Shown here: positions 76-50,637 of the stretch, piece after piece
Layout: the number at the start of each line of letters is the position of its first letter
Position numbering within the stretch: position 1 is the first letter of the stretch
Source: Spirochaetia bacterium
GTDB taxonomy: Bacteria; Spirochaetota; Spirochaetia; SZUA-6; Bin103
NCBI GenBank assembly: GCA_965208575.1
Contig: CBDBOV010000003.1
Span: 256,001 to 320,000, forward strand
DNA: 64,000 nucleotides
Reading direction: 5' to 3'
Notes under the pieces: model-generated
The model's input: the letters and a program-made list of their open reading frames with translations, nothing else
What the model was told of the DNA's origin: nothing
The model's database searches: none
Translations under genes and position numbers: made by a program

Positions 76-1902
76 ATGAATGGTATCGTAAGCGTGATGA
101 GGACCTTCGCGGTTGCGTTGGTCCTCATCCTGACCGCGACCGGCCTGTGGGCCGCTGGCGAAGAAGAGGCACCGGCAGCGGCGGCCGAGAAGGAAATGGT
201 GCTCGACCCGACCACCGGGGAGATGGTGGAGGCGCCACGATATGGCGGGACGATAACCGTTCTCAGTCATGATTGGGCTCCTGCCACTATGGACCCGTAT
301 TTTTCGGCCCCTCAGGCCCTTCAGTATCTCACCCAGGTTCTAGAGAAGCTGGCCATTGGCGACTGGGGAATAGACAGGGACGTATATGACTGGTCGGGCC
401 CCCCGGTCTTTCCTATGAGTGCCATGCGCGGGGCGCTGGCGGAAAGCTGGGAGATTTCCTCGGATAACCTCACTTATACCTTCAAGATCCGCCAGGGCGT
501 TCAGTTCCACGACAAGGCACCGGTGAACGGCCGGGAGATGACTGCCAAGGACGTAGAATACAGCTTTCAACGCATGTTGGGAAGTAAGCTGACAGGGACC
601 GAGTTCAGTGAAACCGAACCTTCCCCCCACATTGGTACTTGGAAGGCTAGACAGGTCGAATCGGTGACGGCGACGGACGAATGGACGGTTGTCATGAAGC
701 TGAAACAGCCAGACCCCATGGCGCTGAGGGATAGCATCGACACGACCGTGTTTTACATGATTCCAAGGGAGGTAATCGATACATACGGTGACATGAAGGA
801 TTGGCGGAACGCGGTCGGCACCGGACCCTTTGAGATGGCTGAGTATGTCGAGGGCAGCTCTATAACCTATACGAAGCATCCCAACTACTGGAGCTTCGAC
901 GAAAAATTCCCGGACAACCGCCTGCCCTATGTTGACGAGATGAGGTTCGTGTTCATGACCGAGCCAGCAACGAAAATTGCCGCGCTGCGCACGGCTAAGG
1001 TCGATATCCAGGGCAGTCTCACGTACGCGCTCAAAAACAAGGACGACATGGAGAGGCTGCAACGGACCAACCCTGACATCGTGATAACCGAGCATCCTAA
1101 TCGGTCGGACTACGGTATCGGCATGAACACGCAGAAGGCGCCATTTGATGACATCCAGGTACGCAAGGCAATGCAGATGGCACTGGACCGTGAGACACTT
1201 CACAATACCTACTTCAAGGGGTGGGGAAGCTGGACACCTCACTCATTGCTGGCCAACGATATGCCAGTAGTTGGCACCGCATTCGAAGAGTGGCCCGAAG
1301 AGCTCAAGAAGATCTATGACTACGACCCGACAGAGGCCGAGAGGCTCCTTGATGAGGCGGGGTATCCGCGCGGCGCCGACGGCATCAGGTTCAAGCTCAC
1401 AATGGGACATTGGGAAGGCGGCGATCTGGACTATGCACAATTGGTAGCCGTTACCTACTTTCGTGACATTGGCGTTGAGGTAGAAGTTGAGCCAGTGCCA
1501 GGTGCGGAGTGGGCAAGTTACATTAACGCTGCACAGTGGGACATGTTTGGTGGTATGACAATGGCGGCGAAGTATGGTAATCCCCTGGGTTTTTTGAGTC
1601 AGCTCGGGACGGGTGCTTCTGCGAACCGCTGCAATTGCGCCGATCCGGCTTATGACGCCATTTTGGAAGCCGCCGGAAATGCAACCACGGAAGAGGAGTT
1701 TTTGCTGCAGGTAAGAGAGCTGATTGAGCACATAAAAGAGCAGGTTTGGTTCGTCTCGGGCCCGCAAATCCCATTACTAGGCGTGCACCAACCGTGGGTC
1801 AAAGGTCTCAACAAGGAATTTTGGCTGGGAAGTAACAAGACAAATGCCATCGTCCCCCGCCTCTGGGTCGACCAGGAGTTGAAGGCAGCGATGGGTTTTT
1901 AG
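76..1902 (+). CDS. ABC transporter substrate-binding protein, family 5 (cassette U1)
   Basis: Signal peptide, P.YGG, GALAESW, GTGPF, DEAGYPRGADG motifs; GGAG RBS favours ATG at 76 over 64. Confidence 0.92.
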   Translation: MNGIVSVMRTFAVALVLILTATGLWAAGEEEAPAAAAEKEMVLDPTTGEMVEAPRYGGTITVLSHDWAPATMDPYFSAPQALQYLTQVLEKLAIGDWGIDRDVYDWSGPPVFPMSAMRGALAESWEISSDNLTYTFKIRQGVQFHDKAPVNGREMTAKDVEYSFQRMLGSKLTGTEFSETEPSPHIGTWKARQVESVTATDEWTVVMKLKQPDPMALRDSIDTTVFYMIPREVIDTYGDMKDWRNAVGTGPFEMAEYVEGSSITYTKHPNYWSFDEKFPDNRLPYVDEMRFVFMTEPATKIAALRTAKVDIQGSLTYALKNKDDMERLQRTNPDIVITEHPNRSDYGIGMNTQKAPFDDIQVRKAMQMALDRETLHNTYFKGWGSWTPHSLLANDMPVVGTAFEEWPEELKKIYDYDPTEAERLLDEAGYPRGADGIRFKLTMGHWEGGDLDYAQLVAVTYFRDIGVEVEVEPVPGAEWASYINAAQWDMFGGMTMAAKYGNPLGFLSQLGTGASANRCNCADPAYDAILEAAGNATTEEEFLLQVRELIEHIKEQVWFVSGPQIPLLGVHQPWVKGLNKEFWLGSNKTNAIVPRLWVDQELKAAMGF

Positions 1903-1937
1903 GCGTTGCACCCCCGTGCCGCTGACCTTACGGAAAG

Positions 1938-1970
1938 AGGGAGCTGGGAGGCTCAGGATTCCCAGCTCCC
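1938..1970 (+). terminator. Intergenic hairpin between SBP and oppB (mRNA stabiliser or partial terminator)
   Basis: GGGAGCTGGGA...TCCCAGCTCCC inverted repeat; GC hairpins occupy the same position in U2, U3, U7, U8. Confidence 0.6.
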
Positions 1971-2013
1971 CAGCCCATTGAAATAGCGAACGGACGCGGT
2001 CGGTCATTATCAC

Positions 2014-3024
2014 ATGAGAGCCTATATCATCAGGAGGCTGTTGCTCATGATCCCCACCTTGTGGATATTGAGCATCCTGGTTTTTCTCTCGGTCCGCTTC
2101 ATCCCCGGCGACGCAATAGACGTGTGGGTGGCCAAGATGGCGGTCTATGGCGAGGCCCTCCAGGACTTTGACCGTGAAGATTTCATGCGTTTTCTCGGCT
2201 TGGACGTGCCTGTGTACGTGCAGTATGGACGCTGGATAGGAGTGTTGCCGTCCCCCGACTGGGTCACCGGCGAGCCCTACTTCAGAGGTCTCCTCCAGGG
2301 CACCCTTGGCGAATCAATGGGGGGCAGCGCTGCTTCCATAGAGGAACGCCTGATAGGTAGATTGCCGGTAACCATTCAACTTGGCGTGATGGCAATCGTA
2401 ATCGGGCTGCTGATAGCCCTGCCGGTCGGCATCTACTCGGCGATTCGGCAGGATACGGCCGCCGACTACGCAGGGCGTACCACGGGCATCATCGGCATGT
2501 CAGTGCCTAACTTCTGGCTGGCAATCATGGTCATGATCTACCCGGTAGTCTGGTGGGGCTGGTCGCCACCGCTGGAGTGGGTTCCGTTCACCGAAGACCC
2601 ACTGGGAAGTCTCAAGGGGTTACTCATTCCCAGCGTGATTCTGGGCACGGGCATGTCCGCGGGCACGATGCGGTTGACGCGCACCACGATGCTGGAGGTA
2701 CTCAGGCAAGACTATATCAGAACCGCCTGGTCCAAGGGTCTCAATGAGAGGGTAGTTGTTATGAGACACGCCGTCAAGAATGCCCTCATCCCGGTAGTTA
2801 CTGTGATCGGCATGCAGTTGCCTCTGCTGGTCGGTGGCTCGGTTATCATAGAGAACATATTCAACCTGCCGGGGGTGGGTCGTCTCTTTCTGACCGCACT
2901 CGTTGACCGAGACTACCCGATGGTGTCCGGAGTCAACCTGTTCTTGGCGACCGTGGTGGTAGGGGCCAATCTGATCATCGACCTGATTTATCCGTACTTG
3001 GACCCCAGGGTCCGATACAGCTAA
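2014..3024 (+). CDS. OppB/DppB-type permease (U1)
   Basis: MRAYIIRRLL N-terminus, QDYIRTAWSKG EAA loop, LDPRVRY C-terminus. Confidence 0.93.
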   Translation: MRAYIIRRLLLMIPTLWILSILVFLSVRFIPGDAIDVWVAKMAVYGEALQDFDREDFMRFLGLDVPVYVQYGRWIGVLPSPDWVTGEPYFRGLLQGTLGESMGGSAASIEERLIGRLPVTIQLGVMAIVIGLLIALPVGIYSAIRQDTAADYAGRTTGIIGMSVPNFWLAIMVMIYPVVWWGWSPPLEWVPFTEDPLGSLKGLLIPSVILGTGMSAGTMRLTRTTMLEVLRQDYIRTAWSKGLNERVVVMRHAVKNALIPVVTVIGMQLPLLVGGSVIIENIFNLPGVGRLFLTALVDRDYPMVSGVNLFLATVVVGANLIIDLIYPYLDPRVRYS

Positions 3025-3042
3025 AAGGGGGAAATCGTGCAT

Positions 3043-3975
3043 ATGAGCGACGCCACAGGGGTACCATCACCAGTAATCGAGGCAAACAGACGGAGCCCGC
3101 TGGCTGATTTCTTTATCAGGCTGGTAACGGAGAAGCCGGTGGGTACTGCCTGCGGGATTATCATATTGATATTGATCCTTGTCGCTATCTTTGGCGGTGT
3201 TCTGACTCCTTATCCATATGATGAAGCAAACATTCATGACATGATGAAGGGCCCATCAGCCCAGTATCTGCTGGGTACCGACCAGTTGGGGCGAGACTTG
3301 TTGAGCCGCATTATCTACGGGGCTCGTATTTCGCTACTTGTCGGTCTGACCGTGACCACTATCAGTGTTGTCGTCAGTACCCTGATAGGCGGCACTTCAG
3401 GATTCATTGGCGGTAAATTGGACCTGGGTGTGCAGCGATTTGTCGATGCTTGGCTGGCTTTCCCGGGACTGCTCCTGCTGCTGACGATGATGTCCATAGT
3501 CGGGCGCGGTCTGCCGCAGATAATACTGGTCCTGGGGATATCAGGAGGTATTGGCGGCAGTTGAGTAATCAGAGGCGCCGTGATCGGCATCAAAGAGAAT
3601 GTGTATTTTCAGGCGGCCGACGCCGTTGGCTCGTCGAGATTGCGAACATTCATGCGCCACGTGGTGCCGAATGTCCTGCCTATCGTAATCATAATGTTCA
3701 GCGTCACCATAGGTGGCGTAATCCTGTCGTTGGCTGCTCTGGGCTTCCTCGGATTTGGTCTGCCTCCCGGCACTCCTGATTGGGGGGGTCTGCTCAGCCG
3801 GGAGGGACGCCAGTACATGGAGGCAGCGCCGCGGCTGGCGTTCTGGCCCGGTCTGTGCCTGACTATCACCGTCTTCAGTCTCAACATGTTCGGCGACGCC
3901 GTGCGAGACCTGCTCGACCCGCGGCTGCGGGGTGGCAGCGGTCGTCTCGCTGGCGGCGGCGCCACGTCGGTTTGA
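3043..3975 (+). pseudogene. OppC/DppC-type permease with in-frame nonsense codon (U1)
   Basis: TGA at 3562-3564 in GGS*VIRG where paralogues have Arg; same frame continues to DAVRDLLDPRL. Confidence 0.88.
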
Positions 3976-4114
3976 GAGAGTGCGCGTGCGGGCAGAGGCG
4001 CGCAGGCGCCCACTGCCGGGCACGGGCCGATACCATCGTGACGCGCACGTGACGCTCCGGCCGTGCCTGCGTGTTGCATCGACGACCGGATAGTGTGCTA
4101 CTCTCCCACACTAC

Positions 4115-4330
4115 ATGGGGCTGGTGAACGCCGATCTTGAGCTCTCCAATCCGCGCGACTCCGCCCGCCGTCCGATGCGCGTAAACAGCTTGGTGGATAC
4201 CGGCGCCCTGCATCTCCGTGTTCCAGAGCATGTCGCCCTGCAGCTTGGTCTGGAAGAACTCTACCAGCGCGAAGTAACGACCGCCGACGGCGCCAAGCAC
4301 CTGGCACCGTATGTGTTGCCGCCATGTGTT
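4115..4330 (+). pseudogene. Clan AA (retropepsin-like) aspartyl protease, 3' truncated
   Basis: LVDTGA catalytic motif, TADG; the C-terminal LLG motif is missing. Confidence 0.7.
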
Positions 4331-4347
4331 CCATGTGTTAGGGCTGG

Positions 4348-4869
4348 TTGACCCGCATTGCAGGTCCGTGCTAGGGTCGCACCGCAAAGTCATGCACGGC
4401 CCCTGTAGGCCCCCACAACAAGTCAAGTTAGCCCCCCCCCAGCTCTTCATATCCCGTAGATCGCTAACTGCTCGGGCTGGTCGCCCCGCGGGCGCCTTCG
4501 GCTTCAGCACTGGGGGTAGCGGCCGGCTCCGTGTACGTCGGCTCAGTCCACGTTCGTTCACTGACCAGCGCAACCGTCCTGGATCCCCGGTCCCCAACTC
4601 ACCGTCGCAAACGCAACGCCGTCAGGTATCTGGCTGGCCACCCTGTGGCCTGTGGCCCCGAAAAAAGCAGAAAGGAGGTGCACGCTGGTACTCGAGCAAC
4701 CACGCAACGCGCGCGGCCTGAGCCCATGAGCCCATGAGTGACGTGCCGCGCGCTGGACGATCCGAGATTGCCGTCGCTGCGCAGCCGCCCGCGTTGCGGG
4801 CGCGAAAGTGCGCAGGGAGTGGCGATTCGCTACAAATATACTCTCAAAACCCAACATACGGAGTTACGT
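4348..4869 (+). promoter_or_regulatory. Conserved cassette leader U2
   Basis: TTGACC-N18-TAGGGT 4348-4377; uORF1 4392-4721 with C9 at 4432-4440; AGGAGGTG 4673-4680 then CTG uORF2 4685-4729; hairpins to 4845; homologous to 9550-9940. Confidence 0.7.
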
Positions 4870-6690
4870 ATGAACATTGTAATGACTACAAAGACCTTCG
4901 CGGTTGCGTTGGTCCTCGCCCTGGTCGCCACCGGCGTCTCGGCGAGCCCGGCCGGGGAAGAGGAGCCGGCCGCGGCGATGGAGAAGGAGATGGTGATGGA
5001 CCCGTCCACCGGCAAGATGGTGACCGCACCCGAGTACGGCGGCACCCTCACCATCGCATCCAAGAACGAGCTCCTGGACCAGGATCCGTCGATCGGCGGA
5101 CACTGGGCCGGCTTTCAGATCATGGGGGTGAACGAGAAGCTGGCATACGTCAACTGGGCCACGCCGCGGGACGAGTACCCCTTGACCTTTTGGTACACGC
5201 CGCCCCAGCACCTCACCGGGTGGCTGGCAGAGAGCTGGTCGAATCCCGACCTGCAGACGCTCATCGTCAAGGTCCGGCAGGGCGTTCACTGGCACGACAA
5301 GCCGCCGATGAACGGACGCGAGCTGACCGCCGAAGACGTCGCCTGGACCTACCGCCGCATCGGTGGCCTCCTCGACTGGAAGCCGGAGTATACCTACGCC
5401 CTGCGCAACTTTCCGTGGGAATCCATCGAGGCCACCGACCGGTACACGGTCGAGTTCAAGCTGACCGAGCCGCGTCTGGACTTGCAGAACCAGGTGCTCA
5501 CCGAGGTCGGCGTCTGGATCCTGCCACCGGAGGTCATCGAGCAGCACGGCAACTACTCCGATTGGCGGAACGTGGTCGGCACCGGGCCGTTCATGCTGGC
5601 TGACTTCCAACCCGAGGTACGCAAGCAGTGGGTGCGCAATCCCGACTACTGGGGCTTCGACGAGAAGTACCCGGACAACCGGCTGCCCTACGTCGATGAG
5701 CTGGTGGCTCTCCATATGAAGGAAGAGGCGACCTACACTGCCGCGCTGCGCACCGGCCAGGTAGACATGCTTACTGTCGGCGGCGGCATCGCGCTGGCCA
5801 CCGTCGAAGCGGTGGATGCCATCCTGAAGACCAACCCCGACATGCAGGCAGTCCCGTTCTACAGTCGCGCACTGCAGGTGTCCGGCCTGAACATCCGCCG
5901 GCCGCCGTTCGACGACATCCGCGTGCGCAAGGCGATGAACATGGCGATCGACCGCGATGCCATCAACGAGAGCTACTACGGCGGGTATGCCTACCCGACG
6001 GTGCAGGGCTGGGTCGGCGCCGCGCTCGGCGAGATGCACACTCCGTTCGCGGAGCGGTCCGCGGATCTGCAGGCTGAGTACTCCTACCATCCGCAGGAGG
6101 CCGAGCGCTTGCTTGACGAGGCCGGCTACCCGCGCGGCGCGGACGGGGTGCGGTTCAAGGTCACCTACGACCACCGCGACGTGATCGACCTCGGATGGGT
6201 CGAGATCGTGGCCGGCTACTGGAAGGCGATCGGCGTAGAGGTGGAGATCACGGTGATGGACACCGGCGCCTGGGTCGATCGCCGCGCCCGCGGGCTCTAC
6301 GAGATGACGACCGGCGACTCCGGCTGGGATCTGAGTCCCGCGCACATCATGAGCTACTACGGCTACGTCCACAACTACCAGGGCGAAGGGCAGGCGAACC
6401 AGGCGGGCGAATACACCGGCGGGCTCAAGGACGCGACCATGAGTCGGCTCTACGAGGCGTTCCAGGCTGCGACCAGCCAAGAAGCGCGGATCCCGATCAT
6501 GCGAGAGTTCGACGATTACATCATGCGCCAGCACTTCCAGGTCTACGGCCACAAGGCGCCGGCGTTCCAGCTGGCCAACCCCTGGGTCAAGGGCTGGAAC
6601 GGCGAGACGTTCCTCACGGATATGAGCAACAACGAGATTCTGGTGCGGGTCTGGATCGACCAGGACCTGAAGGCGAAAATGGGCTTCTGA
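4870..6690 (+). CDS. ABC SBP family 5 (U2)
   Basis: Same motifs as U1; GGAG RBS before ATG 4870. Confidence 0.92.
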   Translation: MNIVMTTKTFAVALVLALVATGVSASPAGEEEPAAAMEKEMVMDPSTGKMVTAPEYGGTLTIASKNELLDQDPSIGGHWAGFQIMGVNEKLAYVNWATPRDEYPLTFWYTPPQHLTGWLAESWSNPDLQTLIVKVRQGVHWHDKPPMNGRELTAEDVAWTYRRIGGLLDWKPEYTYALRNFPWESIEATDRYTVEFKLTEPRLDLQNQVLTEVGVWILPPEVIEQHGNYSDWRNVVGTGPFMLADFQPEVRKQWVRNPDYWGFDEKYPDNRLPYVDELVALHMKEEATYTAALRTGQVDMLTVGGGIALATVEAVDAILKTNPDMQAVPFYSRALQVSGLNIRRPPFDDIRVRKAMNMAIDRDAINESYYGGYAYPTVQGWVGAALGEMHTPFAERSADLQAEYSYHPQEAERLLDEAGYPRGADGVRFKVTYDHRDVIDLGWVEIVAGYWKAIGVEVEITVMDTGAWVDRRARGLYEMTTGDSGWDLSPAHIMSYYGYVHNYQGEGQANQAGEYTGGLKDATMSRLYEAFQAATSQEARIPIMREFDDYIMRQHFQVYGHKAPAFQLANPWVKGWNGETFLTDMSNNEILVRVWIDQDLKAKMGF

Positions 6691-6782
6691 CCCCGGCCGG
6701 CAGAGGGTCGAACCAACGCGGGGTGGCGGGGACGACCTGCCACCCCGTTTTCTTGCGCAACGGAGTGTGGAGGTGAGCTGAC

Positions 6783-7751
6783 GTGCGGGCGTATTTGATC
6801 AGGCGGGTGCTGCTGGTCATCCCCACCATCTTGATCATCACTGTCCTGGTGTTTCTGTCGGTGCGCTTCATTCCCGGCAGCGTCATCGAGGTGATGGTCG
6901 CCCGGATGGGCTACGAAGGCGGCGGCGCGATCGACATTGCTGCCGCGAAAAAGCGGCTCGGGCTCGACGTCCCCGTTCCCGTGCAGTACGGGCGGTGGAT
7001 CGGGAACATCGTCGTGCGTGGCACCCTCGGCAGCTCGCTATACGGCGGCTCGAGCGGCTACACCGTGGAGGCGATGATGGCCTCCAGGATAGGCGTGACC
7101 CTGGAGCTGGGGCTGCTGGCGATCCTGACCGGTTTGATCATCGCGGTGCCGATCGGTATCTATTCGGCGATTCGGCAGTACACGGTGGCCGACTACGCTG
7201 GCCGCTCGGCGGCGATCGTCGGCCTGTCGACCCCGAACTTCTGGCTCGCGCTGCTGGTCATCATCTATCCGGCCATCTGGTGGGGGTGGACGCCGCCGCT
7301 GACGCACGTCCGCTTCGCCGTCGACCCGCTGGCGAACCTCACCATGTTCCTGTTTCCCGCCCTGATCCTGGGGACCTACCTGGCGGCCAGCACGATGCGC
7401 ATGACCCGCACCATGATGCTGGAGGTGCTGCGCCAGGACTATGTAAGGACGGCTTGGGCCAAGGGCCTGCAGGAGCGCAGGGTGGTGCTCCGGCACGTCG
7501 TCAAGAACGCCCTCATCCCGGTGGTCACGCTGATCGGCCTGCAACTGCCGATCATCGCCGGTGGCTCGGTGATCATCGAGACCATTTTCAACCTGCCCGG
7601 GCTCGGACGCCTGATGCTGAGCGCGCTCAACCTGCGCGACTACCCGGTGGTGTCCGGCGTGAACCTGTTCTTCGCCTCGGTGGTGGTGCTGATCAACCTC
7701 GCCACCGACCTGGCGTACGCCTACCTGGATCCGAGGATCCGCTATGAGTGA
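6783..7751 (+). CDS. OppB-type permease (U2)
   Basis: EAA loop, LDPRIRY. Confidence 0.93.
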   Translation: MRAYLIRRVLLVIPTILIITVLVFLSVRFIPGSVIEVMVARMGYEGGGAIDIAAAKKRLGLDVPVPVQYGRWIGNIVVRGTLGSSLYGGSSGYTVEAMMASRIGVTLELGLLAILTGLIIAVPIGIYSAIRQYTVADYAGRSAAIVGLSTPNFWLALLVIIYPAIWWGWTPPLTHVRFAVDPLANLTMFLFPALILGTYLAASTMRMTRTMMLEVLRQDYVRTAWAKGLQERRVVLRHVVKNALIPVVTLIGLQLPIIAGGSVIIETIFNLPGLGRLMLSALNLRDYPVVSGVNLFFASVVVLINLATDLAYAYLDPRIRYE

Positions 7752-8736
7752 GTCGAATGCGTCGAATGCGCCGCTTTCGGTCGACGCGGGCGGCAGTCCG
7801 GTGGGTGAGGCGGCGCGTGACCCGGGCGGCGGCCGGCGCCGCCCCTTGACTGACTTCTTCGGTCGATTGCTGCGCCAGCAGCCGCTGGGCGCCGCGGCCG
7901 GCGTGGTCCTGTTGGGGCTGATCTTCGTCGCCGTCTTTGCCGAGCAGTTGACGCCGCACGAGTACGACATCGGCCGCGTGCAGGACCGCTTGCAGGCGCC
8001 CTCCGCCGAGCACCCGCTCGGCACCGATCACGCCGGCCGCGACGTGCTGGCGCGGATCCTCAAGGGCGCTCAGGTGTCGCTGCTGGTGGGGCTGATAGCG
8101 ACCCTGCTGAACACCATCGTGGCGCTGCTGGTGGGCGGCACCACGGGCTTCATCGGCGGCCGGGTCGACATCTACGCCCAGCGCTTCGTCGATGCCTGGA
8201 TGTCGTTCCCGGGATTGCTGCTGCTGCTCACCATCATGTCGTTCGTCGATCGCAGCATCGTCACGGTGATCGTGGTGCTGGGTGTCACCGGCGGCATTCC
8301 GGCGTCGCGGGTGGTGCGCGGCGCGGTGATCGGCGTCAAGGAGAACGCCTACTTCCAAGCCGCGGAGGCGGCCGGCGCGCGCCGGCGCCGGATCCTGGTG
8401 CGCCACGTGCTGCCCAACATCGCCGCGCCGCTGATCGTGATCTTCAGCATCAACGTCGGCAGCGTCATCATCGCCGAGGCCAGCTTGAGCTTCCTCGGTT
8501 TCGGCCTGCCGGTGAACGTGCCGAGCTGGGGCGGCATGCTGAGCCGCGAAGGGCGGAGGTACATGGAGCTGGCGCCGCGGCTGGCGCTGTGGCCCGGTCT
8601 GTTCCTGACGGTGACGGTGTACTGCCTCAACATGGTGGGCGACGCGGTCCGCGACCTGCTCGACCCGCGCCTGCGCGGCACCGCCGGCCGCTACGGGGGC
8701 TCCACGTCCCGCCGCCGCGGAGTTGGCACGCCCTGA
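7744..8736 (+). CDS. OppC-type permease (U2)
   Basis: LGTDHAGRD, RHVLPN, DAVRDLLDPR; overlaps oppB stop. Confidence 0.93.
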   Translation: MSESNASNAPLSVDAGGSPVGEAARDPGGGRRRPLTDFFGRLLRQQPLGAAAGVVLLGLIFVAVFAEQLTPHEYDIGRVQDRLQAPSAEHPLGTDHAGRDVLARILKGAQVSLLVGLIATLLNTIVALLVGGTTGFIGGRVDIYAQRFVDAWMSFPGLLLLLTIMSFVDRSIVTVIVVLGVTGGIPASRVVRGAVIGVKENAYFQAAEAAGARRRRILVRHVLPNIAAPLIVIFSINVGSVIIAEASLSFLGFGLPVNVPSWGGMLSREGRRYMELAPRLALWPGLFLTVTVYCLNMVGDAVRDLLDPRLRGTAGRYGGSTSRRRGVGTP

Positions 8737-8867: not shown

Positions 8868-9104
8868 ATGAAGTTCAGACTACTAGATACGGTCGTGCTC
8901 ACGAGAGATCATGAGGAGTTTGGACTCCGACGCGGAGACGTTGGAGCGGTGGTTGAGGTCTATCAGCCTGACAGGTTTGAAGTCGAGTTCGTCACCGCGT
9001 CCGGAAAGACAGAAGCTGTTGTGACGCTGGGGGATAACGATCTGCGTCCTGTCTGCGATTCTGACCTTCTGTCGGTGAGACCCGTCGTGCAGCGATCGGC
9101 ATAG
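8868..9104 (+). CDS. DUF4926-like small protein (TA-associated)
   Basis: LLDTVVL...GDVGAVVEVY...FEVEFV pattern; RBS present. Confidence 0.75.
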   Translation: MKFRLLDTVVLTRDHEEFGLRRGDVGAVVEVYQPDRFEVEFVTASGKTEAVVTLGDNDLRPVCDSDLLSVRPVVQRSA

Positions 9105-11218: not shown

Positions 11219-11319
11219 TAGCGCCCCGACTGACCTGCGTGCAAGGGGCTGGGATGTTGCGTTCGGAGCGCCGCTTCAGAGCGCGCTCCCAGCCCTCACT
11301 CATTGCATAAGGTGTCCCC

Positions 11320-12550: not shown

Positions 12551-12727
12551 AACCGCATGCGAGGCCTCCTGCGGCGTGGCGGTCACGCTGCTTCCGCATC
12601 GCCACGGGACTCGCGCGTTTGATCCCGGCAGCCCGAGCGCGACGGCACCCTGGCCGCTACCGAAGCGCGCGGACTGGCGTTCATCCCCTGGAGTCCCTGG
12701 AGCGCACCACCCCTGGCCGGAGGAGAG

Positions 12728-15755: not shown

Positions 15756-15795
15756 AGCCGGTGGTACGGTCGCTTCGACCGTGTTACAGTGTGTC

Positions 15796-39380: not shown

Positions 39381-39467
39381 AGGCCACGGGCTCGGTCGCA
39401 AACGACTGCTCGACACAGTCAGTCGATTGCCCTGGCACTACCTGCAACTGCTCTTGACGAAACGCGT

Positions 39468-41773: not shown

Positions 41774-41856
41774 CTCTCCCTCCGGAGGGGGACAGGACAA
41801 CGGATTGTCCTCCTCCGAGGGTCAGATGACGGGAAGATCGCGGTGAGGCGCAGCAC

Positions 41857-42810: not shown

Positions 42811-42829
42811 GGGCCGGGGACGTGGCAGC

Positions 42830-43708
42830 ATGCGCACGCGGTTCCTGACCCGGCTGGTCAGGGAGAAGCCGCTCGGCACGGCCAGCGGCATCGCCGTAGT
42901 GATCCTGATTCTGGTGGCCATCTTCGCCGACGTCCTCGCTCCCTATCCCTACGGGGAACGGCACCTGCCGGACCGCCTGCAGGGCTCATCGGCCCAGTAC
43001 CTGCTCGGTACCGACCACCTGGGGCGCGACCTCCTGAGCCGCATCATCCACGGCGCCCGGGTCTCTCTGACGGTGGGTCTGGCAGCCACCACGGTCAACG
43101 TGCTGGTCGCCGTACTGATCGGCGGCACGTCGGGATTCCTGGGCGGCAGGCTGGACCTGGTGGTGCAGCGGTTCGTGGATGCCTGGATGTCGTTCCCGGG
43201 ACTGCTGCTGTTGTTGACCGTCATATCGATCGTGGGCCAGGGGCTGCTGCAACTGATCGCGGTCCTGGGCATCTCGGGCGGCATCGTCGGCTCGCGCGTG
43301 CTCAGGAGCGCGGTCATCGGGGTAAAGGGGAACGACTATTTTCAGTCGGCGGTGGCGATCGGCGCCTCGCAGTGGAAGATCATCGTCCGCCACGTGCTGC
43401 CCAACATCGCGGCACCGATCATCGTGGTATTCAGCATCAACGTGGGGGGCGTGATCATCTCGGAGGCTGCGTTGAGCTTCCTGGGCTTCGGCCTGCCGAT
43501 CGAGATTCCGAGCTGGGGCGGGATGCTGAGCCGGGAGGGACGCCAGTACATGGAGGCGGCGCCGCACCTCGCGTTGTGGCCCGGCCTGGCGTTGACGGTC
43601 ACCGTGTACAGCCTGAACATGCTCGGCGACGCGGTGCGCGACCTGCTCGACCCGCGGCTGATCGGTGGCGCCGGCCGCCTGGGCGCGCAAGACACCCGGT
43701 CCGTGTAG
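42830..43708 (+). CDS. OppC-type permease (U7)
   Basis: Full-length; start uncertain. Confidence 0.92.
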   Translation: MRTRFLTRLVREKPLGTASGIAVVILILVAIFADVLAPYPYGERHLPDRLQGSSAQYLLGTDHLGRDLLSRIIHGARVSLTVGLAATTVNVLVAVLIGGTSGFLGGRLDLVVQRFVDAWMSFPGLLLLLTVISIVGQGLLQLIAVLGISGGIVGSRVLRSAVIGVKGNDYFQSAVAIGASQWKIIVRHVLPNIAAPIIVVFSINVGGVIISEAALSFLGFGLPIEIPSWGGMLSREGRQYMEAAPHLALWPGLALTVTVYSLNMLGDAVRDLLDPRLIGGAGRLGAQDTRSV

Positions 43709-43899
43709 CCGACGTTTAGTTTAGGCGCTGACGAGAGCTTGACTGACTACCGCGCATGTGAGACCGTGCCGCACCGTCGTAGCGCACACGAAGTGGGGCA
43801 AGGCGGCGGTTCCGGCCTTGTATCTGCGGCCACATGCCTTGCCGAAAGACAACACGAGCGATATCCTTGTAGTGACTGTGAGGCCACCGAGGGAAGAAT

Positions 43900-44157
43900 A
43901 TGCCCACGATTCTGTTTATTCTTGGCTGGCGATTGTTCTTTTACACAAATGAACGGCGTGAACCGCCTCATATTCATGGCCGTAAGGGTGATTGTGAATG
44001 CAAGTATTGGTTGGATACTGAAGACTACGATGTTCTTGAAGCTTACTGTTACAACATGAGCCCAAGGGATAAACGAGCAATTCGTAAAATCATTTTTGAT
44101 CATTTCGACTACATAATAGCGGAATGGAATCGAGTCCATAAAATGCGCAATGGATAA
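43900..44157 (+). CDS. DUF4160 protein
   Basis: MPTI..GWRLFFY.NE..EPPHIH; AT-rich. Confidence 0.82.
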   Translation: MPTILFILGWRLFFYTNERREPPHIHGRKGDCECKYWLDTEDYDVLEAYCYNMSPRDKRAIRKIIFDHFDYIIAEWNRVHKMRNG

Positions 44158-44416
44158 ACACTACAAGATAATCAAAGTGTCCTTTGAGGACGATACGATG
44201 GTACTACAGGTTGATGGTAATACCCATTTGATCAATATCAAAGGGCAGTCCCAAAGACTCGCCATGGCCTCACAAGCACAGCGGCAACACTATGTTGTCT
44301 CGCCTGCGGGATACGGAATTCACTGGCCGCTAGTCGACGAGGATCTTTCTATCGACGGCCTGATTGGCATTGAACACGCGCCTCCCCTGCACGAGGAATC
44401 CAGTCGGGTCCGCTAA
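44150..44416 (+). CDS. DUF2442 protein
   Basis: GYGIHWP.VDEDLSIDGL; overlaps DUF4160. Confidence 0.82.
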   Translation: MDKHYKIIKVSFEDDTMVLQVDGNTHLINIKGQSQRLAMASQAQRQHYVVSPAGYGIHWPLVDEDLSIDGLIGIEHAPPLHEESSRVR

Positions 44417-44534
44417 TGGTCTGACATTGAGTCCGCGCTACGACACGGCGAGGCGAAGGCGCGCTGCGGCATTCGCGGGTCCGGCAGGTCGCGTCGCACC
44501 GGCAGTCCTCTATGGCCAGCGTTACCTTGAGGCT

Positions 44535-45400
44535 CGCGAACCACAGCAGCCGAAAGGCCCGGCTGCCGCGCAGCAACTCTCCGTAGCCGCCACGGCTACG
44601 CATGGCACGCCTCCGGCCGGCGCTGCGCCCGAATAACACCACTGCCGCGCAGCGATTCGCCGCCGCGTTCACGCATGCGGCGCCCCCGGCGGTGACCACG
44701 ACGGGCGCCCGCGGCGGAGTTGGAGCGAGCCGTCGCGTGTCTCCTGATCGGTTGGCGGGATGGTGGAGATACCTGTCGCCGGCGTCAACAAGCAGATGCA
44801 ATTCGCGCAATGGGGTTGGAGGTGCTGATCGAGTTGGTCGAGCGCGCCGGGGTGCTGATGAGCGCCGCCAAGCCGGGGTAGGTTACATACCTCGCCATGA
44901 CTGCCGCCCACCCGCTGCCGCTCTCGTATATTGTGAGAACCTACGAGCTGAGTCCCGCGGTGCTGGAGACGGCAGCGCGGGCGGCGAAGCCGCAACGCTG
45001 GGAGGCGCTGATGTCAACGGTCGCGGAAGCATGGATGCGGGAGGGCAAGGCCGAGGGCAAGGCCCAGGGTAGAGCCGAGGGCAAGGCCGAGACGCTGCTT
45101 CGTCTTTTGCAGCGGCGATTCGGTCCCGTTGCGGAGAGTGCTCGGGCACGGGTGGCGGGCGGGTCGGCGGCGGAGATCGATGCCTGGTTCGATGCCCTGC
45201 TTGACGCGCAAAGCCTGACGGAGGTGTTCGACGCCCATCCGCAGTGAGCGCCGCCCGACCGCTCGGTGTGAGGCGAAGAGGTAACCGACCCATGCCGGCC
45301 CCCGTTCTGCTGACGGACCAACAGGTTCAGGACTACCTGACCCATGGCTACCTGGTGCGGCGATGCGGCCATCCGGCTGCGGTGCACCGGCGCATCCTGC
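44535..45400. pseudogene. Collapsed copy of 58880-60670 carrying an Rpn/DUF4351 C-terminal fragment
   Basis: MFS 5' end, DUF1801 3' end and PhyH 5' end in the same order; EGKAEG..LLRLLQRRFG at 44930-45247. Confidence 0.75.
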
Positions 45401-45537
45401 CGCCGCCGCCGTCAAGTCGCGCGGACGACCCCGCCGACCCCGCGAGGGCCACGATCTTGCGCCGCTTGCACTCTCGTGGCGGATGTGATAGAGTGACGAA
45501 ATGAAGCGAGCGAGAGCAACCGCTCAACCGCTCGCGT

Positions 45538-46060
45538 TTGACACCTGGCCTCGTCCATGCCACGGTTGCGCGAAGCGGGCCCGATGCGTATGACGCGCAA
45601 AGACACTTTTCAGCGTTGCTACCGGACGGTGGCTATCCAACCCGTGCGCCCGCCCGCCCCCCCCCCGGGGGGCCGCGGAGGCGATACACCTAACTCTCCA
45701 TCCTGCAGAAACAACCGAACGCTCCGGGCGACCGGGCGGCGCGTACGGGTGCTCCTGCGCGTGCCCTCGCCTTCGGCATCACACCGTCGACTATCGAACT
45801 ACCGAGCCAGACTATCCGGGCGGCCCAGGCGGCAACCCGCGCGTGAGATCCGCCAAACGGGGAGGTGCACGTTGGTACGCAAGGAACCACGCCACGCGCG
45901 CGGCCTGAGCCCATGAGCCCATGAGGCACCCGCCGCGCGCACGACGATCCGTGATTGCCGCCGCTGTTTGGCCGCCCGCGTTGCGGGCGCGAGAGTGGCA
46001 GGGAGCGGCAACTCACCATGGCAGAACTCTCAACACACAGAGAATCGAGGAGTGATCAAT
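45538..46060 (+). promoter_or_regulatory. Conserved cassette leader U8
   Basis: TTGACA-N17-CACGGT; uORF1 from 45584 with C10G6 at 45657-45672, in frame with uORF2 45872-45916. Confidence 0.72.
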
Positions 46061-47854
46061 ATGGATCTTCCAAGAATCGCACACACCTTCGTGTGTGTGC
46101 TCGTGCTCGGCTTGGCCGCAACCGGCCTGTGGGCGGCTGCGGCGGAAGAGGAGCCGGCCGCGGCGATGGAGAAGGAAATGGTGCGCGACCCGGCCACCGG
46201 CGAGATGGTCAGCGCTCCGCAGTATGGCGGGACCTTGACCTATGCCACCGGCGGGGCCGCTCCGGCGAATGCCGACACCCATTTCCTCCATGTCCAGGCA
46301 ATGGTCACCGGCGCCACCACGGAGAAGCTGGGCATCATGGACTGGGCCATCGACAGGGACGAGTTTTCGTTCCGCAACACGTACATACCGTTATCCGTCT
46401 ACCGACCACATCTGGCTGAGAGCTGGGACACTCCCGACCCGCTCACGATCATCTTCAACATCCGCAAGGGAGTGAACTGGCAAAACAAGGCGCCGATGAA
46501 CGGGAGGGAGTTTACCGCTGATGACGTCGTATTCAACTTTCGTCGCCTGCTGGGCCTGGGCGAGTTCGCCGAAGCCGGGCCGAGTCCCTTTACCTATCAG
46601 CGGCCACTTGGCGAGTCGGTAACGGCCACCGACCGATACACGGTCGTCATCAAGCTGCCGGAGCCCAGTGCCGTAGCGCTCGGACAGTATCTCGGCATCG
46701 GCCTCACCTACATGAACGCCCCCGAGGTGATCCGGGAGCACGGTGACGTGAAGGACTGGCGTAACCTGGTCGGTACCGGGCCCTATCTGCTGACCGATTG
46801 GACCGACGGTAGCTCATTTACCTTCCAGAAGAATCCCGACTACTGGAAAGACGACGAGAAGTACCCGGGGAATCGGCTGCCCTATATCGACGAGATACAG
46901 GGCCTTATCGTCCTGGAAGAAGCCACCTACCTGGCGGGGCTGCGCACCGGCAAGATTGATTTCCTGGGCTTTCCCGTTGGCGTCTCCGACATCACGTCGG
47001 TCGAAGTGCTTGAGAGCCTGCAGAAAAACAACCCCGAAATCATGCTGCAGGCGTGGTGGGACCGCTCGGAAAACTCGTATGCGATTGACGCGAGCAAGCC
47101 GCCGTTTGACGACGTCAGGGTGCGCCGGGCGATGCAGATGGCAATCGACCTCGAGGGCATCGACCGCAGCGTCTACCAGGGCACTTCAGCCTGGCAGCCT
47201 CAGGGTATAATCGGGGAAGGCGTCGGCGGGTACTTCACCCCTTTCGACGAGTGGCCCGAAGAGGTCAAGAAGGGCTATCGGTACGATCCGGCCGGGGCGG
47301 AAGCGTTGCTGGATGAGGCCGGTTATCCGCGCGGTGCCGACGGCACGCGATTCAAGACCGTGTTGAACCATCTCTATCGGTTTCCCTTGGGGTACAGCGA
47401 ACTGGCTGCCACCTACTGGGCCGAGATTGGCGTTGACGTGAAGATCAACGTATTGGATGAAGCTGACCCTGCGCGAAGCAACCGTACGTGGGAAGGTCTG
47501 ATATATCACACGATGGGCAACAATACTGAGCCGTTGGGTTTCGTACGCCAGATGGTCCACTCGAGCAGCCACGAAGACCTGCACGGAGTCAGGTACCCTG
47601 AGTTGGATGCCCTGCTCGACGCCGCCGCGGCCACTGATTCCGAACAGGAACGGCAGAGGCTGGTCAAAGAGGTGGATCTGTACACGATGGAGAACCACTG
47701 GTGGATATGGGGTCCCAAAGCCGGGAAGTACATGTCGCACCAGCCGTGGGTGGTCGGCTTCAACGGTGAAACCTGGCTTGGATTCATGGACCGCCTCACC
47801 ATCCTCGCACGTCTCTGGATCGACAGTGAACTGAAGGCGGAAATGGGTCATTAG
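46061..47854 (+). CDS. ABC SBP family 5 (U8)
   Basis: N-terminus identical to U7, body diverged. Confidence 0.92.
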   Translation: MDLPRIAHTFVCVLVLGLAATGLWAAAAEEEPAAAMEKEMVRDPATGEMVSAPQYGGTLTYATGGAAPANADTHFLHVQAMVTGATTEKLGIMDWAIDRDEFSFRNTYIPLSVYRPHLAESWDTPDPLTIIFNIRKGVNWQNKAPMNGREFTADDVVFNFRRLLGLGEFAEAGPSPFTYQRPLGESVTATDRYTVVIKLPEPSAVALGQYLGIGLTYMNAPEVIREHGDVKDWRNLVGTGPYLLTDWTDGSSFTFQKNPDYWKDDEKYPGNRLPYIDEIQGLIVLEEATYLAGLRTGKIDFLGFPVGVSDITSVEVLESLQKNNPEIMLQAWWDRSENSYAIDASKPPFDDVRVRRAMQMAIDLEGIDRSVYQGTSAWQPQGIIGEGVGGYFTPFDEWPEEVKKGYRYDPAGAEALLDEAGYPRGADGTRFKTVLNHLYRFPLGYSELAATYWAEIGVDVKINVLDEADPARSNRTWEGLIYHTMGNNTEPLGFVRQMVHSSSHEDLHGVRYPELDALLDAAAATDSEQERQRLVKEVDLYTMENHWWIWGPKAGKYMSHQPWVVGFNGETWLGFMDRLTILARLWIDSELKAEMGH

Positions 47855-47929
47855 CCTGGCGGAGGGGGGCAACGAAATTGTCCCCCTCCGAGGGTCCGAT
47901 GACGCGCAGATCGCGGAAAGGCGTAGCAC

Positions 47930-48883
47930 ATGAGAGCCCACGTCATCAGGCGGTTGCTGCTGGTCATCCCCACCCTGTTCATCCTCAGCATCCTGGTCTT
48001 TCTGTCGGTCCGCTTCATTCCGGGTGATGTGATCGACGTGATGCAAGGCAGGCTGGGCGGCCTGGGGCAGGTGGACCGTGCAGCGCTCGAGCGGATGCTG
48101 GGACTGGACCAGCCGGTGTACGTGCAGTACGGGCGCTGGTTGGGCGATATCCTGCTGCACGGCAGCCTGGGCCGCTCGCTGATGGGCGACTGGCTGGTAG
48201 AGGAGAAGATTCTCGCTCGATTGCCGGTCACCATCGAATTGGGCGTGCTGTCAATCGTCATCGGGCTGTTGATCGCGCTCCCGGTCGGCATCTACTCGGC
48301 GATTCGCCAGGATACGGCGGTCGACTACGCCGGCCGCTCGATCGCCATCCTGGGCCTGGCAACGCCCAACTTCTGGCTTGCCCTGATGGTGATGATCTAC
48401 CCGGCGATCTGGTGGGGCTGGTCGCCGCCGATGCGGCTGATCACGTTCCGCGAAGACCCGCTGGGGAACCTGGGCATGTTCCTGATTCCGAGCCTGATCC
48501 TGGGGACCTACCTGGCCGCCGCCACCATGCGCATGACGCGCACCATGATGCTGGAAGTGTTGCGCCAGGACTACATCCGCACCGCGTGGTCCAAGGGCCT
48601 GAAGGAGCGGGTGGTGGTGGTGCGGCACGCGGTCAAGAACGTGCTGATTCCGGTGGTTACGCTGATCGGCCTGCAGTTGCCCATCCTGGTGGGTGGCGCC
48701 GTCATCATCGAGAACATCTTCAACCTGCCCGGTTTGGGCCGCCTGATGCTGGTGGCGCTCACTGACAGAGACTTCCCGGTGGTCGCCGGCATCAACCTGG
48801 TGTTCGGCACCGCGGTGATGGGGATCAACCTGATGATCGACCTGGTCTATGCGGTCCTGGATCCCCGGGTCCGGTACCAGTAG
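47930..48883 (+). CDS. OppB-type permease (U8)
   Basis: Near-identical to U7. Confidence 0.93.
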   Translation: MRAHVIRRLLLVIPTLFILSILVFLSVRFIPGDVIDVMQGRLGGLGQVDRAALERMLGLDQPVYVQYGRWLGDILLHGSLGRSLMGDWLVEEKILARLPVTIELGVLSIVIGLLIALPVGIYSAIRQDTAVDYAGRSIAILGLATPNFWLALMVMIYPAIWWGWSPPMRLITFREDPLGNLGMFLIPSLILGTYLAAATMRMTRTMMLEVLRQDYIRTAWSKGLKERVVVVRHAVKNVLIPVVTLIGLQLPILVGGAVIIENIFNLPGLGRLMLVALTDRDFPVVAGINLVFGTAVMGINLMIDLVYAVLDPRVRYQ

Positions 48884-48902
48884 GGGCCGGGGACCTGGCA
48901 GC

Positions 48903-49781
48903 ATGCGCACGCGATTCCTGACCCGGCTGGTCAGGGAGAAGCCGCTCGGCACGGCCAGCGGCATCGCCGTAGTGATCCTGATTCTGGTGGCCATCTTCGC
49001 CGACGTCCTCGCTCCCTATCCCTATGGTGAGAGGCACCTGCCCGACCGCTTGCAGGGCTCATCGGCCCAGTACCTGCTCGGCACCGACCACCTGGGGCGC
49101 GACCTCCTGAGCCGCATCATCCACGGCGCCCGGGTCTCTCTGACGGTGGGTCTGGCAGCCACCACGGTCAACGTGCTGGTCGCCGTACTGATCGGCGGCA
49201 CGTCGGGATTCCTCGGCGGCAGGCTGGACCTGGTGGTGCAGCGGTTCGTGGATGCCTGGATGTCGTTCCCGGGACTGCTGCTGTTGTTGACCGTCATATC
49301 GATCGTGGGCCAGGGGCTGCTGCAACTGATCGCGGTCCTGGGCATCTCGGGCGGCATCGTCGGCTCGCGCGTGCTCAGGAGCGCGGTCATCGGGGTAAAG
49401 GGGAACGACTATTTTCAGTCGGCGGTGGCGATCGGCGCCTCGCAGTGGAAGATCATCGTCCGCCACGTGCTGCCTAACATCGCGGCACCGATCATCGTGG
49501 TATTCAGTATCAACGTGGGGGGCGTGATCATCTCGGAGGCTGCGTTGAGCTTTCTGGGCTTCGGCCTGCCGATCGAGATTCCGAGCTGGGGCGGGATGCT
49601 GAGCCGGGAGGGACGCCAGTACATGGAGGCGGCGCCGCACCTCGCGTTGTGGCCCGGCCTGGCGTTGACGGTCACCGTGTACAGCCTGAACATGCTCGGC
49701 GACGCGGTACGCGACCTGCTCGATCCGCGGCTGATCGGCGGCGCCGGCCGCCTGGGCGCGCAAGACACCCGGTCCGTGTAG
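48903..49781 (+). CDS. OppC-type permease (U8)
   Basis: Protein appears identical to U7 oppC. Confidence 0.92.
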   Translation: MRTRFLTRLVREKPLGTASGIAVVILILVAIFADVLAPYPYGERHLPDRLQGSSAQYLLGTDHLGRDLLSRIIHGARVSLTVGLAATTVNVLVAVLIGGTSGFLGGRLDLVVQRFVDAWMSFPGLLLLLTVISIVGQGLLQLIAVLGISGGIVGSRVLRSAVIGVKGNDYFQSAVAIGASQWKIIVRHVLPNIAAPIIVVFSINVGGVIISEAALSFLGFGLPIEIPSWGGMLSREGRQYMEAAPHLALWPGLALTVTVYSLNMLGDAVRDLLDPRLIGGAGRLGAQDTRSV

Positions 49782-49855
49782 CGGTAGTGAGCCGAAAAGG
49801 CGCTGCCGCATTCGCGCGTGCGCCGCATGCTTGACCAGGTGGATCTCGCCATGCT

Positions 49856-50344
49856 TCATGAGTCGTCCTGATACTCGAGCACCTCTCGGGCCTCGCGGTT
49901 CAGTTCCTCCGCGTGGGCGTCGAGCGCGGCAAGCTCTCGTTGCGGTGCCGGGGCAGGCCGCAGGTAGTCACTCGGTCGCAGGATCGTAAGGCCCGCAACC
50001 GTGGATCCGTAGTACGCGCCGAAGTGTGTGCGGTCGCCGGTGATCAGATGGGTCGCTCCGGCGGCCGCGGCCGCCGAGAACACGGGGCGGTCCTTGTCCG
50101 GCAGGTCCACGGGACACCGGTCGGCGGGAGACTCCGGTACGACGAGTGCGGATTGCAGCCTGGTGTCCAGCCGCCGGATCTGTTCCGGTTCCCGCAGGTT
50201 GCGGCGTGCTTCTTCGATCACGTAGCGAGACACCAGGAGCGTGCAACTCCCGGCGCGTTGCGCGTCCCACAGCCGCTCAATGCTGGGGCTGCCGTACGCC
50301 GCCGAGAACAACACGTTCGCATCGAGAAACAGTCGGTCTGCCAA
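49856..50344 (-). CDS. PIN-domain toxin
   Basis: LFLDANVLFSA, KD.PV, LITGD. Confidence 0.85.
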   Translation of the reverse strand: MADRLFLDANVLFSAAYGSPSIERLWDAQRAGSCTLLVSRYVIEEARRNLREPEQIRRLDTRLQSALVVPESPADRCPVDLPDKDRPVFSAAAAAGATHLITGDRTHFGAYYGSTVAGLTILRPSDYLRPAPAPQRELAALDAHAEELNREAREVLEYQDDS

Positions 50345-50349
50345 TGAGG

Positions 50350-50637
50350 TCAGGTGGGACGGTCGTGGGGTACGCGGTCCGGGTCGAGACCGAGCTTGCG
50401 CACCTCCTCCCGCGCCCAGGCGTAGTCCTGCTCGTCCACGGCGTTTGTCAGCAGGAACTCCGCCTTGCGCTGGCGGGTGTAGGTCTCCACCGGCAGGGCT
50501 ACGGCGGGCCGCACCAGCACGCCTTCCTCGTGCGCCTCGGTGATCACGAAAGATCCCTCCTCCATGCCGTATTCGCGCCGCAGTTGCGCAGGAATCACCA
50601 CGGTGCCACGTTTACCGACTTTGCTCGTTTGCGTCAC
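50350..50637 (-). CDS. AbrB/MazE-type antitoxin
   Basis: KVGKRGTVVIPAQLRR; GGAGG RBS, GTG start. Confidence 0.85.
   Translation of the reverse strand: MTQTSKVGKRGTVVIPAQLRREYGMEEGSFVITEAHEEGVLVRPAVALPVETYTRQRKAEFLLTNAVDEQDYAWAREEVRKLGLDPDRVPHDRPT

Follow-up and report, generated by a model that had tools for sequence, protein, structure and literature searches.

A decaying, toxin-antitoxin-rich stretch of a family of more than 100 ATPase-less importer modules, and not an integron-like system, in a Spirochaetia genome

The 64-kb stretch of DNA analyzed here (the window), positions 256001-320000 of contig C3 in the 6.5-Mb, six-contig genome of a Spirochaetia bacterium (genome G000), is a decaying, toxin-antitoxin (TA)-rich stretch of an ATPase-less importer family with more than 100 copies, and it is not an integron-like system. 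A module of this family consists of a signal-peptide-bearing family-5 solute-binding protein (SBP) and two Opp-type permeases, OppB and OppC, with no ATPases of its own. An earlier note on this DNA had proposed an integrase-free array of such cassettes, interleaved with TA modules that counter recombinational collapse and served by ATPases acting in trans. The reading that we favor, and consider moderately probable, is that the genus has a family of more than 100 self-contained importer modules, of which the window is one rearranging and partly decayed section, and that this family evolves by duplication and gene conversion and has independent TA modules in its spacers. The most interesting finding is the ATPase-less family itself, together with the structured, genus-specific leader that precedes many of its SBP genes.

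The importer family and its ATPases

All stop-to-stop open reading frames (ORFs) with coding-like GC content at the third codon position were translated and scanned against Pfam, and hidden Markov models (HMMs) of the family were built from the window's own SBP, OppB, and OppC proteins. The Pfam scan identified eight importer units or remnants (SBP_bac_5, oppB, and oppC; numbered with U below) between positions 76 and 49781 of the window, and a ninth unit starts at 61896 on the minus strand. The six full-length SBPs of the window matched SBP_bac_5 at 1e-55 to 1e-72, and their nearest solved relatives are HbpA/DppA-type proteins (E = 2.7e-30). As expected of Opp/Dpp-type importers, there are two permeases that match BPD_transp_1, one of them with OppC_N, and the module SBPs have retained their signal peptides. 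Genome-wide, the HMM scores delimited one close paralog family of 113 SBP, 119 oppB, and 111 oppC genes. Its dominant architecture is SBP-oppB-oppC with neither oppD nor oppF (81 single clusters plus tandems), and 84 triplets are intact by strict standards. Solo genes are also common, with an SBP alone in 28 clusters and an oppC alone in 17. The modules form arrays on contigs C3 to C6, in which the spacers have a median length of about 2.6 kb. At the level of Pfam domains, the whole genome has at least 133 SBP_bac_5 matches (133 of the 219 first-look candidates scored) and at least 150 OppC_N matches (150 of 231).

The 64-kb window contains no ABC_tran or oligo_HPY domain detectable in the Pfam scan, which agrees with the earlier statement that it lacks oppD and oppF; the closest oligo_HPY match is located at C3:391592, about 71 kb past the window end. 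The complete genome has 28 oligo_HPY matches, corresponding to 14 OppD/F loci (pairs). None of the 111 family oppC genes has an adjacent ATPase gene, and only two have an OppD/F gene within 5 kb (median distance, 146 kb). When all 180 oppC-like genes with a score of at least 100 are counted against the 14 pairs, there are about 13 Opp-type permease pairs per OppD/F pair. This count includes 69 more distant oppC-like genes (HMM score 100-350), mostly without D/F genes and only six of them within 5 kb of one; examples of distant Opp-type SBP-oppB-oppC clusters are C3:449424-453760 and C4:99587-104051. The earlier note had asked for a genome-wide count of cassettes and ATPases, and the result, 111 family oppC genes versus 14 OppD/F pairs, leaves its proposal of ATPases acting in trans well supported, since more than 100 modules lack an ATPase of their own and the same is seen in the genus.

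First-look SBP_bac_5 candidates, which are not curated copy numbers, were compared with oligo_HPY matches in related genomes. Eight same-genus genomes had 205, 203, 226, 169, 90, 66, 61, and 54 SBP_bac_5 candidates versus 28, 63, 8, 29, 30, 21, 31, and 22 oligo_HPY matches, respectively, and two fragmentary ones (76-81% complete, about 500 contigs) had 10 and 37 versus 5 and 18. The corresponding ranges were 24-57 versus 21-57 in the sister genus and 4-25 versus 1-27 in the rest of the order. The imbalance between SBPs and ATPases is thus a trait of several species of the genus. One of these genomes, with 205 SBP candidates versus 28 oligo_HPY matches, consists of a single contig, and therefore the imbalance is not an artefact of the assembly studied here. 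SBPs 71-74% identical to that of U7 were found in entries that carry the titles 'MAG: bacterium' and 'MAG: Spirochaetia bacterium' (label unconfirmed). The region 41000-50900 of the window was present in contigs of sponge-metagenome runs from several studies; it was also detected in metagenome runs of marine origin or without a label (shares of words 0.23-0.85).

From these numbers and from gene conservation, we infer that a few OppD/OppF pairs energize the modules in trans. The strongest candidate would be an orphan oppD-oppF pair at C1:420703-422771, which is followed by a PpiC-type rotamase gene and has no permease gene in its operon. Four of the D/F pairs, this one included, have orthologues in the same-genus genome with 226 SBP candidates and 8 oligo_HPY matches (G005), where the same D-F-rotamase arrangement occurs with no permease or SBP gene within 8 kb. 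The orphan OppD has a single orthologue, 78-99% identical, in all eight other same-genus genomes searched, the paralogues being at most 55% identical, and an orthologue in three of eight sister-genus genomes. Importer operons without an ATPase gene thus coexist with an orphan ATPase locus elsewhere in the genome, the arrangement expected of importers that share an ATPase. A sister subfamily with the gene order oppB-oppC-SBP was found at C1:414866-418772, C5:991971, C6:309693, and C6:619771. One of its copies, on the strand opposite to the orphan oppDF and 1.9 kb away from it, may mark an ancestral complete system.

The leader upstream of the SBP genes

An element of about 210 nt upstream of the SBP start is common to U1, U2, U3, U5, U7, and U8. 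A search with nhmmer located 63 copies in the genome, 61 of which precede an SBP gene. The leader includes a stretch resembling an upstream ORF (uORF), a GC-rich helix of 12 bp around a small hairpin, another hairpin of 7 bp with a GTT loop, and a two-tier helix whose end is about 25 nt upstream of the ribosome-binding site of the SBP gene. RNAalifold applied to the raw alignment of 54 copies gave one helix only; the helices counted below were placed by eye. In an alignment of 44 sequences, 91.7% of the cells were paired, compared to 28-61% when the 3′ partner was slid; the structure was derived from the same sequences, which biases the percentage upward and makes the support moderate. Eleven of 38 pairs were changed on both sides, a number reached in none of 500 shuffles (mean 5.4). 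A conserved structure, compensatory changes, and a fixed location upstream of the SBP gene are the features of a cis-regulatory leader RNA. The leader may act as a switch in the 5′ untranslated region (UTR) or combine a terminator, a promoter, and a UTR; such a regulatory function is predicted from sequence.

The uORF of the leader has 11 codons (consensus MILKEPHARAA) with start and stop intact in 38 of 54 copies. Its variation by codon position was 45/36/55, with no third-position excess, and its translation is not claimed. Rfam gave no match, whether for the window at the gathering score or for the U5 leader at E <= 1. Searches with BLAST detected the leader in five of seven other same-genus genomes, and 54 genomes from 24 other genera of the order gave no match. 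The units lie on both strands, about half with their own conserved leader, and no sigma-70-type promoter was recognized in the two leaders scanned. Having its own leader would make each leader-bearing unit a self-contained transcription unit, unlike an integron cassette.

These observations can be extended to a more ambitious picture, a hub-and-spoke uptake system in which more than 100 modules with diverged SBPs would plug into a few OppD/F motors, about half of them would be switched by a genus-specific leader RNA of a new class, and the spacer TA modules would be kept by penalizing deletions. Taken as a whole, this picture is a long shot.

Units, spacers, and rearrangement in the window

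The GC content of the window region is 56-68% per 2-kb bin compared to 67-68% for the six contigs, and no tRNA genes were found in the window. Every element named in the earlier note was located where it had been reported; the intactness of the units and some of the labels required correction. Only three of the eight units, U2, U7, and U8, are fully intact, and the other five are damaged. The leader of U1 begins before the window (nhmmer match C3:255872-256116; its 3′ part is at 1-75), and the unit itself (76-3975, plus strand) comprises an SBP gene (76-1902; SBP_bac_5, 1.6e-72), oppB (2014-3024; BPD_transp_1, 1.4e-33), and an oppC broken across two frames (3037-3564 and 3580-3975), with OppC_N and the C-terminal half of BPD_transp_1 in separate ORFs. 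U2 (4675-8736, plus strand) has a leader at about 4675-4869, the SBP gene at 4870-6690, oppB at 6783-7751, and oppC at 7744-8736. In U3 (9774-12944, plus strand), the leader is followed by an SBP gene that starts at 9965 and is truncated at 11218 (SBP_bac_5 profile positions 2-234 of 368), by oppB at 11320-12279, and by oppC remnants that were negative in Pfam and are recognizable by DNA similarity at 12371-12476. An orphan oppC on the plus strand (14826-15940), without SBP or oppB, is also broken across two frames, with OppC_N in 14808-15293 and BPD_transp_1 in 14999-15937.

U5 (16637-23402) is on the minus strand, with oppC at 16637-17569, oppB at 17579-18535, the SBP gene at 21383-23200, and the leader at 23201-23402. 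Its oppB and SBP genes are separated by a leucine-rich-repeat gene (18581-19246, minus strand) and an IS110 transposase gene (19573-21036, plus strand). The leucine-rich-repeat gene, which adjoins IS110, has 66-nt periodic repeats and encodes a eukaryotic-like repeat protein. U6 (28011-31132, minus strand) retains oppC (28011-29192), 87% identical to the oppC genes of U7 and U8, and the SBP gene (29333-31132); its oppB (28901-29215) is cut to the last 70 or so residues, and it has no canonical leader and is absent among the nhmmer leader matches. U7 (39463-43709, plus strand) starts with an upstream block shared with U8 and continues with the leader (about 39786-39970), SBP (39971-41773), oppB (41857-42810), and oppC (42776-43708). 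U8 (45533-49782, plus strand) has a leader followed by SBP (46058-47854), oppB (47930-48883), and oppC (48849-49781). A 72-nt piece upstream of U7 (39139-39210), just past a mobile-element block, is 100% identical to positions 8394-8465 in the U2 oppC and probably survives from a unit since deleted or from a conversion event.

U7 and U8 align at 90% identity (39463-43709 versus 45533-49782), and the alignment ends one base past the oppC stop, in accordance with the near-identical permeases and the unrelated cargo reported earlier. The leader and signal-peptide region is 99-100% identical. Along the SBP body, identity drops to 66-88% in 150-nt windows (77% for the protein), with a synonymous divergence (dS) of 0.44 and a nonsynonymous divergence (dN) of 0.145. 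In oppB and oppC, identity is 97-99% and 95-100% in windows of the same size, dS is 0.043 and 0.061, and dN is 0.006 and 0.001, respectively. The permeases are under purifying selection (dN/dS about 0.02-0.14). A tenfold difference in dS inside one unit indicates recombination, either by an exchange of the SBP body or by a conversion that homogenized the leader and permeases. The sharp boundary is consistent with a gene conversion confined to the homologous coding block: a conversion tract cannot pass the end of homology, which is the oppC stop, and unrelated cargo after the stop is then expected without any site-specific insertion. We propose that the family evolves by duplication, SBP divergence, and a gene conversion that would keep leaders and permeases alike, and that conversion tracts and selection would both stop at the oppC stop codon. 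Homology would consequently end there and unrelated DNA would follow.

A contig from a close relative (G006) matches parts of the window at 97-99% identity but differs in its arrangement. It lacks the stretch 32965-38743 of the mobile-element block and also a Tn7/Mu-like element located downstream of U8. In place of U7 and U8 it has a single cassette, the U8 orthologue (97.7% identical), and the Xre-RES module that lies at 13.7 kb beside other units in the window is found directly upstream of this orthologue (module 98% identical). The DUF4160/DUF2442 pair is absent from G006, which has kept PIN/AbrB at 98% identity, and a contig of the sponge run X2 joins position 43709 to 44450, skipping exactly that pair. 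TA modules are therefore gained, lost, and moved between close relatives, and the array keeps changing by duplication, insertion of insertion sequences (IS), and deletion. The synteny check suggested in the earlier note thus showed collinearity interrupted by discrete insertions or deletions, with a TA content that varies.

TA-like modules occupy almost every spacer of the window. The two-gene architecture of type II TA systems was found, as genes, in four of them: HEPN/MNT with HEPN at 15781-16200 (2e-32) and the MNT nucleotidyltransferase at 16130-16504 (NTP_transf_2, 1e-6), and MNT/HEPN at 26149-26463 and 26435-26866 (2.4e-12 and 8.1e-18), both on the plus strand; an Xre/MbcA/ParS-type antitoxin (13738-14229) with a RES toxin (14226-14717), plus strand; and a PIN_3 toxin (49856-50344) with an AbrB/MazE-type antitoxin (50350-50637), minus strand. 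Two further pairs are predicted to be TA-like, DUF5615 (12681-13133, 5.9e-30) with DUF433 (13066-13293, 4.6e-25) on the minus strand, behind U3, and DUF4160 (43900-44157) with DUF2442 (44150-44416) on the plus strand, behind U7. All of these had been named in the earlier note and were recovered by Pfam. The DUF4926 gene behind U2 is also present (8868-9104, plus strand; PF16277, 9.6e-21), but it stands alone, is the sole copy in the genome, and is only a putative TA gene. The 'Asp protease' taken as a module behind U1 is an aspartyl-protease-like fragment (4094-4348, plus strand) that scored 23.4 bits with Asp_protease_2, below the cut-off of 24.3, and is not a TA gene. The MNT-HEPN pair near U6 is real, but no IS debris was seen ahead of it; that stretch consists of a 3HCDH fragment and an aspartyl-protease-like ORF.

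The mobile-element block (31772-38640) contains a DDE_3 fragment, Uma2 (32335-32982), Transposase_29 (33544-35217), rve (35360-36634, minus strand), and DDE_Tnp_1 (36880-38640). An AbiEii gene and a PemK toxin gene are located further downstream in the window. The PemK gene (60185-60523) adjoins a gene in which a PhyH-type dioxygenase is fused to HEAT repeats (60552-61892, plus strand). The Tn7/Mu-like element (53005-55433, minus strand), composed of an rve/Mu-transposase-C gene and an AAA_22 ATPase gene, splits a DUF402 gene into flanks at 51638-52387 and 56013-56630, which are contiguous in G006; its transposase ORF has eight identical 541-aa copies genome-wide.

Six Pfam families served to survey TA genes in the genome and gave 111 matches (PIN 67, DUF433 20, PemK 12, HEPN 7, DUF4160 4, and DUF4926 1). 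Six of them are in the window, compared to a genome mean of 1.1 per 64 kb, and only two of 384 sliding windows reach that number. In gaps of up to 10 kb between family genes there were 21 of the 111 matches where 5.8% was expected (p = 1.5e-6, about threefold), and without the window the count was 16 of 105 versus 5.4% expected (p = 1.7e-4); these p-values come from a base-pair null that treats matches as independent. The enrichment directly after oppC that the earlier note had asked to test was not borne out: ten matches lie within 1.5 kb downstream of any oppC-like gene, and outside the window they are 6 of 105 versus 4.1% expected (about four), which reveals no positional rule. No enrichment of IS was detected in the inter-cassette gaps (6 of 121 matches; 58 rve and 63 DDE_Tnp_1).

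A random sample of 40 of the 97 gaps outside the window was inspected; four shorter than 600 bp were dropped and 36 were analyzed. Nine of these held a TA-like gene. Most held enzymes, including amidohydrolases, an amidase, short-chain dehydrogenases/reductases, gamma-glutamyltranspeptidase, M20/M28 peptidases, CoA-transferases, PhyH dioxygenases, and luciferase-like monooxygenases. Proteins with AAA_14/DUF4143, AAA-ATPase_like/PDDEXK_9, and FG-GAP/ASPIC (UnbV) domains, as well as long Uma2-domain proteins, recurred in many of the sampled spacers. The spacers elsewhere would thus carry mostly catabolic enzymes, and those of the lower-GC, IS-ridden window TA modules, which would be selfish or defence genes in their own right, gained and lost among close relatives.

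Several points weigh against the reading that we favor. The genome is metagenome-assembled (95% complete, 5.75% contamination), and the genes were called from our own ORFs and HMM score thresholds instead of a curated annotation. The leader precedes 57 of the 113 family SBP genes, the other half being without it. The link between ATPases and permeases is deduced from gene counts and conservation, and the partner of the modules, instead of the orphan oppDF, could be any of 13 further D/F pairs or of some 95 ABC ATPases of other kinds. Lastly, a roughly threefold enrichment of TA genes in spacers in which IS are not enriched is not predicted by the view that junk simply accumulates there.

The last point leads to the model of the earlier note, in which TA modules anchor the arrays: a cell in which a deletion between neighboring paralogous cassettes takes out a TA pair dies, and TA-bearing arrays persist. 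Such a role against collapse is a minority possibility. TA cassettes stabilize Vibrio superintegrons, inter-cassette recombination is real, as the mosaic of U7 and U8 attests, and the gaps enriched in TA genes, with or without the window, are not enriched in IS. On the other hand, TA genes are not systematically behind oppC, 27 of the 36 sampled spacers are free of TA-like genes, G006 and the X2 contig lack the DUF4160/DUF2442 pair, and five of the eight units have been damaged although surrounded by TA modules. The p-values rest on a base-pair null and on independence of the matches, and sponge symbionts are TA-rich in general (PMC5649159).

The same five damaged units, together with the abundance of fragments and solo genes, could mean that most modules are relics, dead or independent of ATPases, and that the ATPase deficit has no functional meaning. 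We regard this as unlikely in view of the 84 intact triplets, the purifying selection on the U7 and U8 permeases, the conserved leader, the retention of signal peptides, and the maintenance of the expansion in several species.

Units moved as mobile cassettes, by a site-specific or a transposon-borne mechanism (a true integron-like system or a composite transposon), are highly improbable. The exact end of the U7/U8 homology at the oppC stop codon and the many transposases close by speak for such a mechanism. However, no motif is common to the 300-nt stretches that follow seven oppC ends (chance matches reached 10-12 nt at best, E >= 0.03), and repeat scans showed coding homology only, with no attC-like imperfect inverted repeats. 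The Pfam scan of the window found no integrase, whether IntI-type or another tyrosine or serine recombinase, and the recombinase-type genes present are transposases only (IS110, Transposase_29, rve, and DDE_Tnp_1). Moreover, IS are not enriched in the spacers, and the contrast in dS between SBP body and permeases within one unit argues for conversion and not for movement of blocks. The description as an integrase-free cassette array holds as far as the missing recombinase is concerned, but cassettes with no shared end sequence and with leaders of their own are not those of an integron, and the analogy was rejected on these three grounds. No site-specific cassette mechanism would be needed.

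Contigs of four runs cover 30, 30, 29, and 30 of the 30 bins of region 38700-51000, and contigs that agree with the assembly, starting about 20-30 nt inside the oppC ends, run into the cargo (43680-44564 and 49762-50206), below our rule of 31 nt for bridging; the short contigs span no whole unit, and several of their joints between U7 and U8 fall in near-identical sequence and are uninformative. That collapsed or chimeric repeats created the array, or that ATPase genes were left in unbinned contigs, has very little probability, despite the contamination and completeness of the genome, the difficulty of assembling repeats of 70-100% identity, and contigs too short for a unit, given that the single-contig genome has the same imbalance, that all or nearly all of region 38700-51000 is covered, that contigs cross the oppC ends (weak evidence, with less than 31 nt on the oppC side), and that the G006 contig is collinear save for discrete differences.

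Comparison with known systems

Like the window, Vibrio superintegrons are long arrays of units with interspersed TA modules, for which a stabilizing role has been proposed. The window differs in having neither IntI nor attC-like ends, and its units are three-gene operons of about 4 kb, with a leader of their own, that are paralogues of one family; superintegron cassettes are unrelated and promoterless. The TA enrichment in the spacers offers a concrete, testable instance of the long-standing notion that repeat arrays are protected by addiction modules.

Sponge symbionts have a high GC content and are enriched in TA and restriction-modification genes and, in some guilds, ABC transporters (PMC5649159). 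In its available part, this account describes neither a 100-copy ATPase-less Opp-type family nor the leader. A literature search that covered few subscription journals found no description of the importer expansion or of its leader.

Sharing of ATPases is known from the multitask ATPases MsmX of Bacillus subtilis, MsmK of Streptococcus pneumoniae, and MsiK of Streptomyces, each an orphan ATPase that serves several importers; this sharing among sugar importers is called 'rather uncommon' and involves six or seven incomplete systems per genome (PMC7658222). As in the family described here, the operons of those importers encode an SBP and two permeases, and the ATPase gene is elsewhere. They are, however, sugar importers with one type of ATPase, whereas the modules described here are of the Opp/Dpp type, which needs an OppD/OppF pair, and would share it. 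In the Opp system of Borrelia burgdorferi, a single heterodimeric ATPase serves several SBPs and two permease pairs (PMC5736914). Compared to the more than 100 permease pairs found here, that system, as presented in the available part of the source, has two, with neither the array structure nor the TA modules.

The scale is different, with about 110 modules and 69 distant oppC-like genes for 14 D/F pairs against six or seven sugar systems per genome. If the modules are active, this would be the most extreme case of ATPase sharing known to us, and in a different importer family. It raises the questions of how one motor pair recognizes more than 100 translocators, how the competition for a shared motor is regulated, for which the conserved leader provides a handle, and what range of substrates a sponge-associated bacterium takes up with more than 100 diverged SBPs encoded beside amidases, peptidases, and dehydrogenases.

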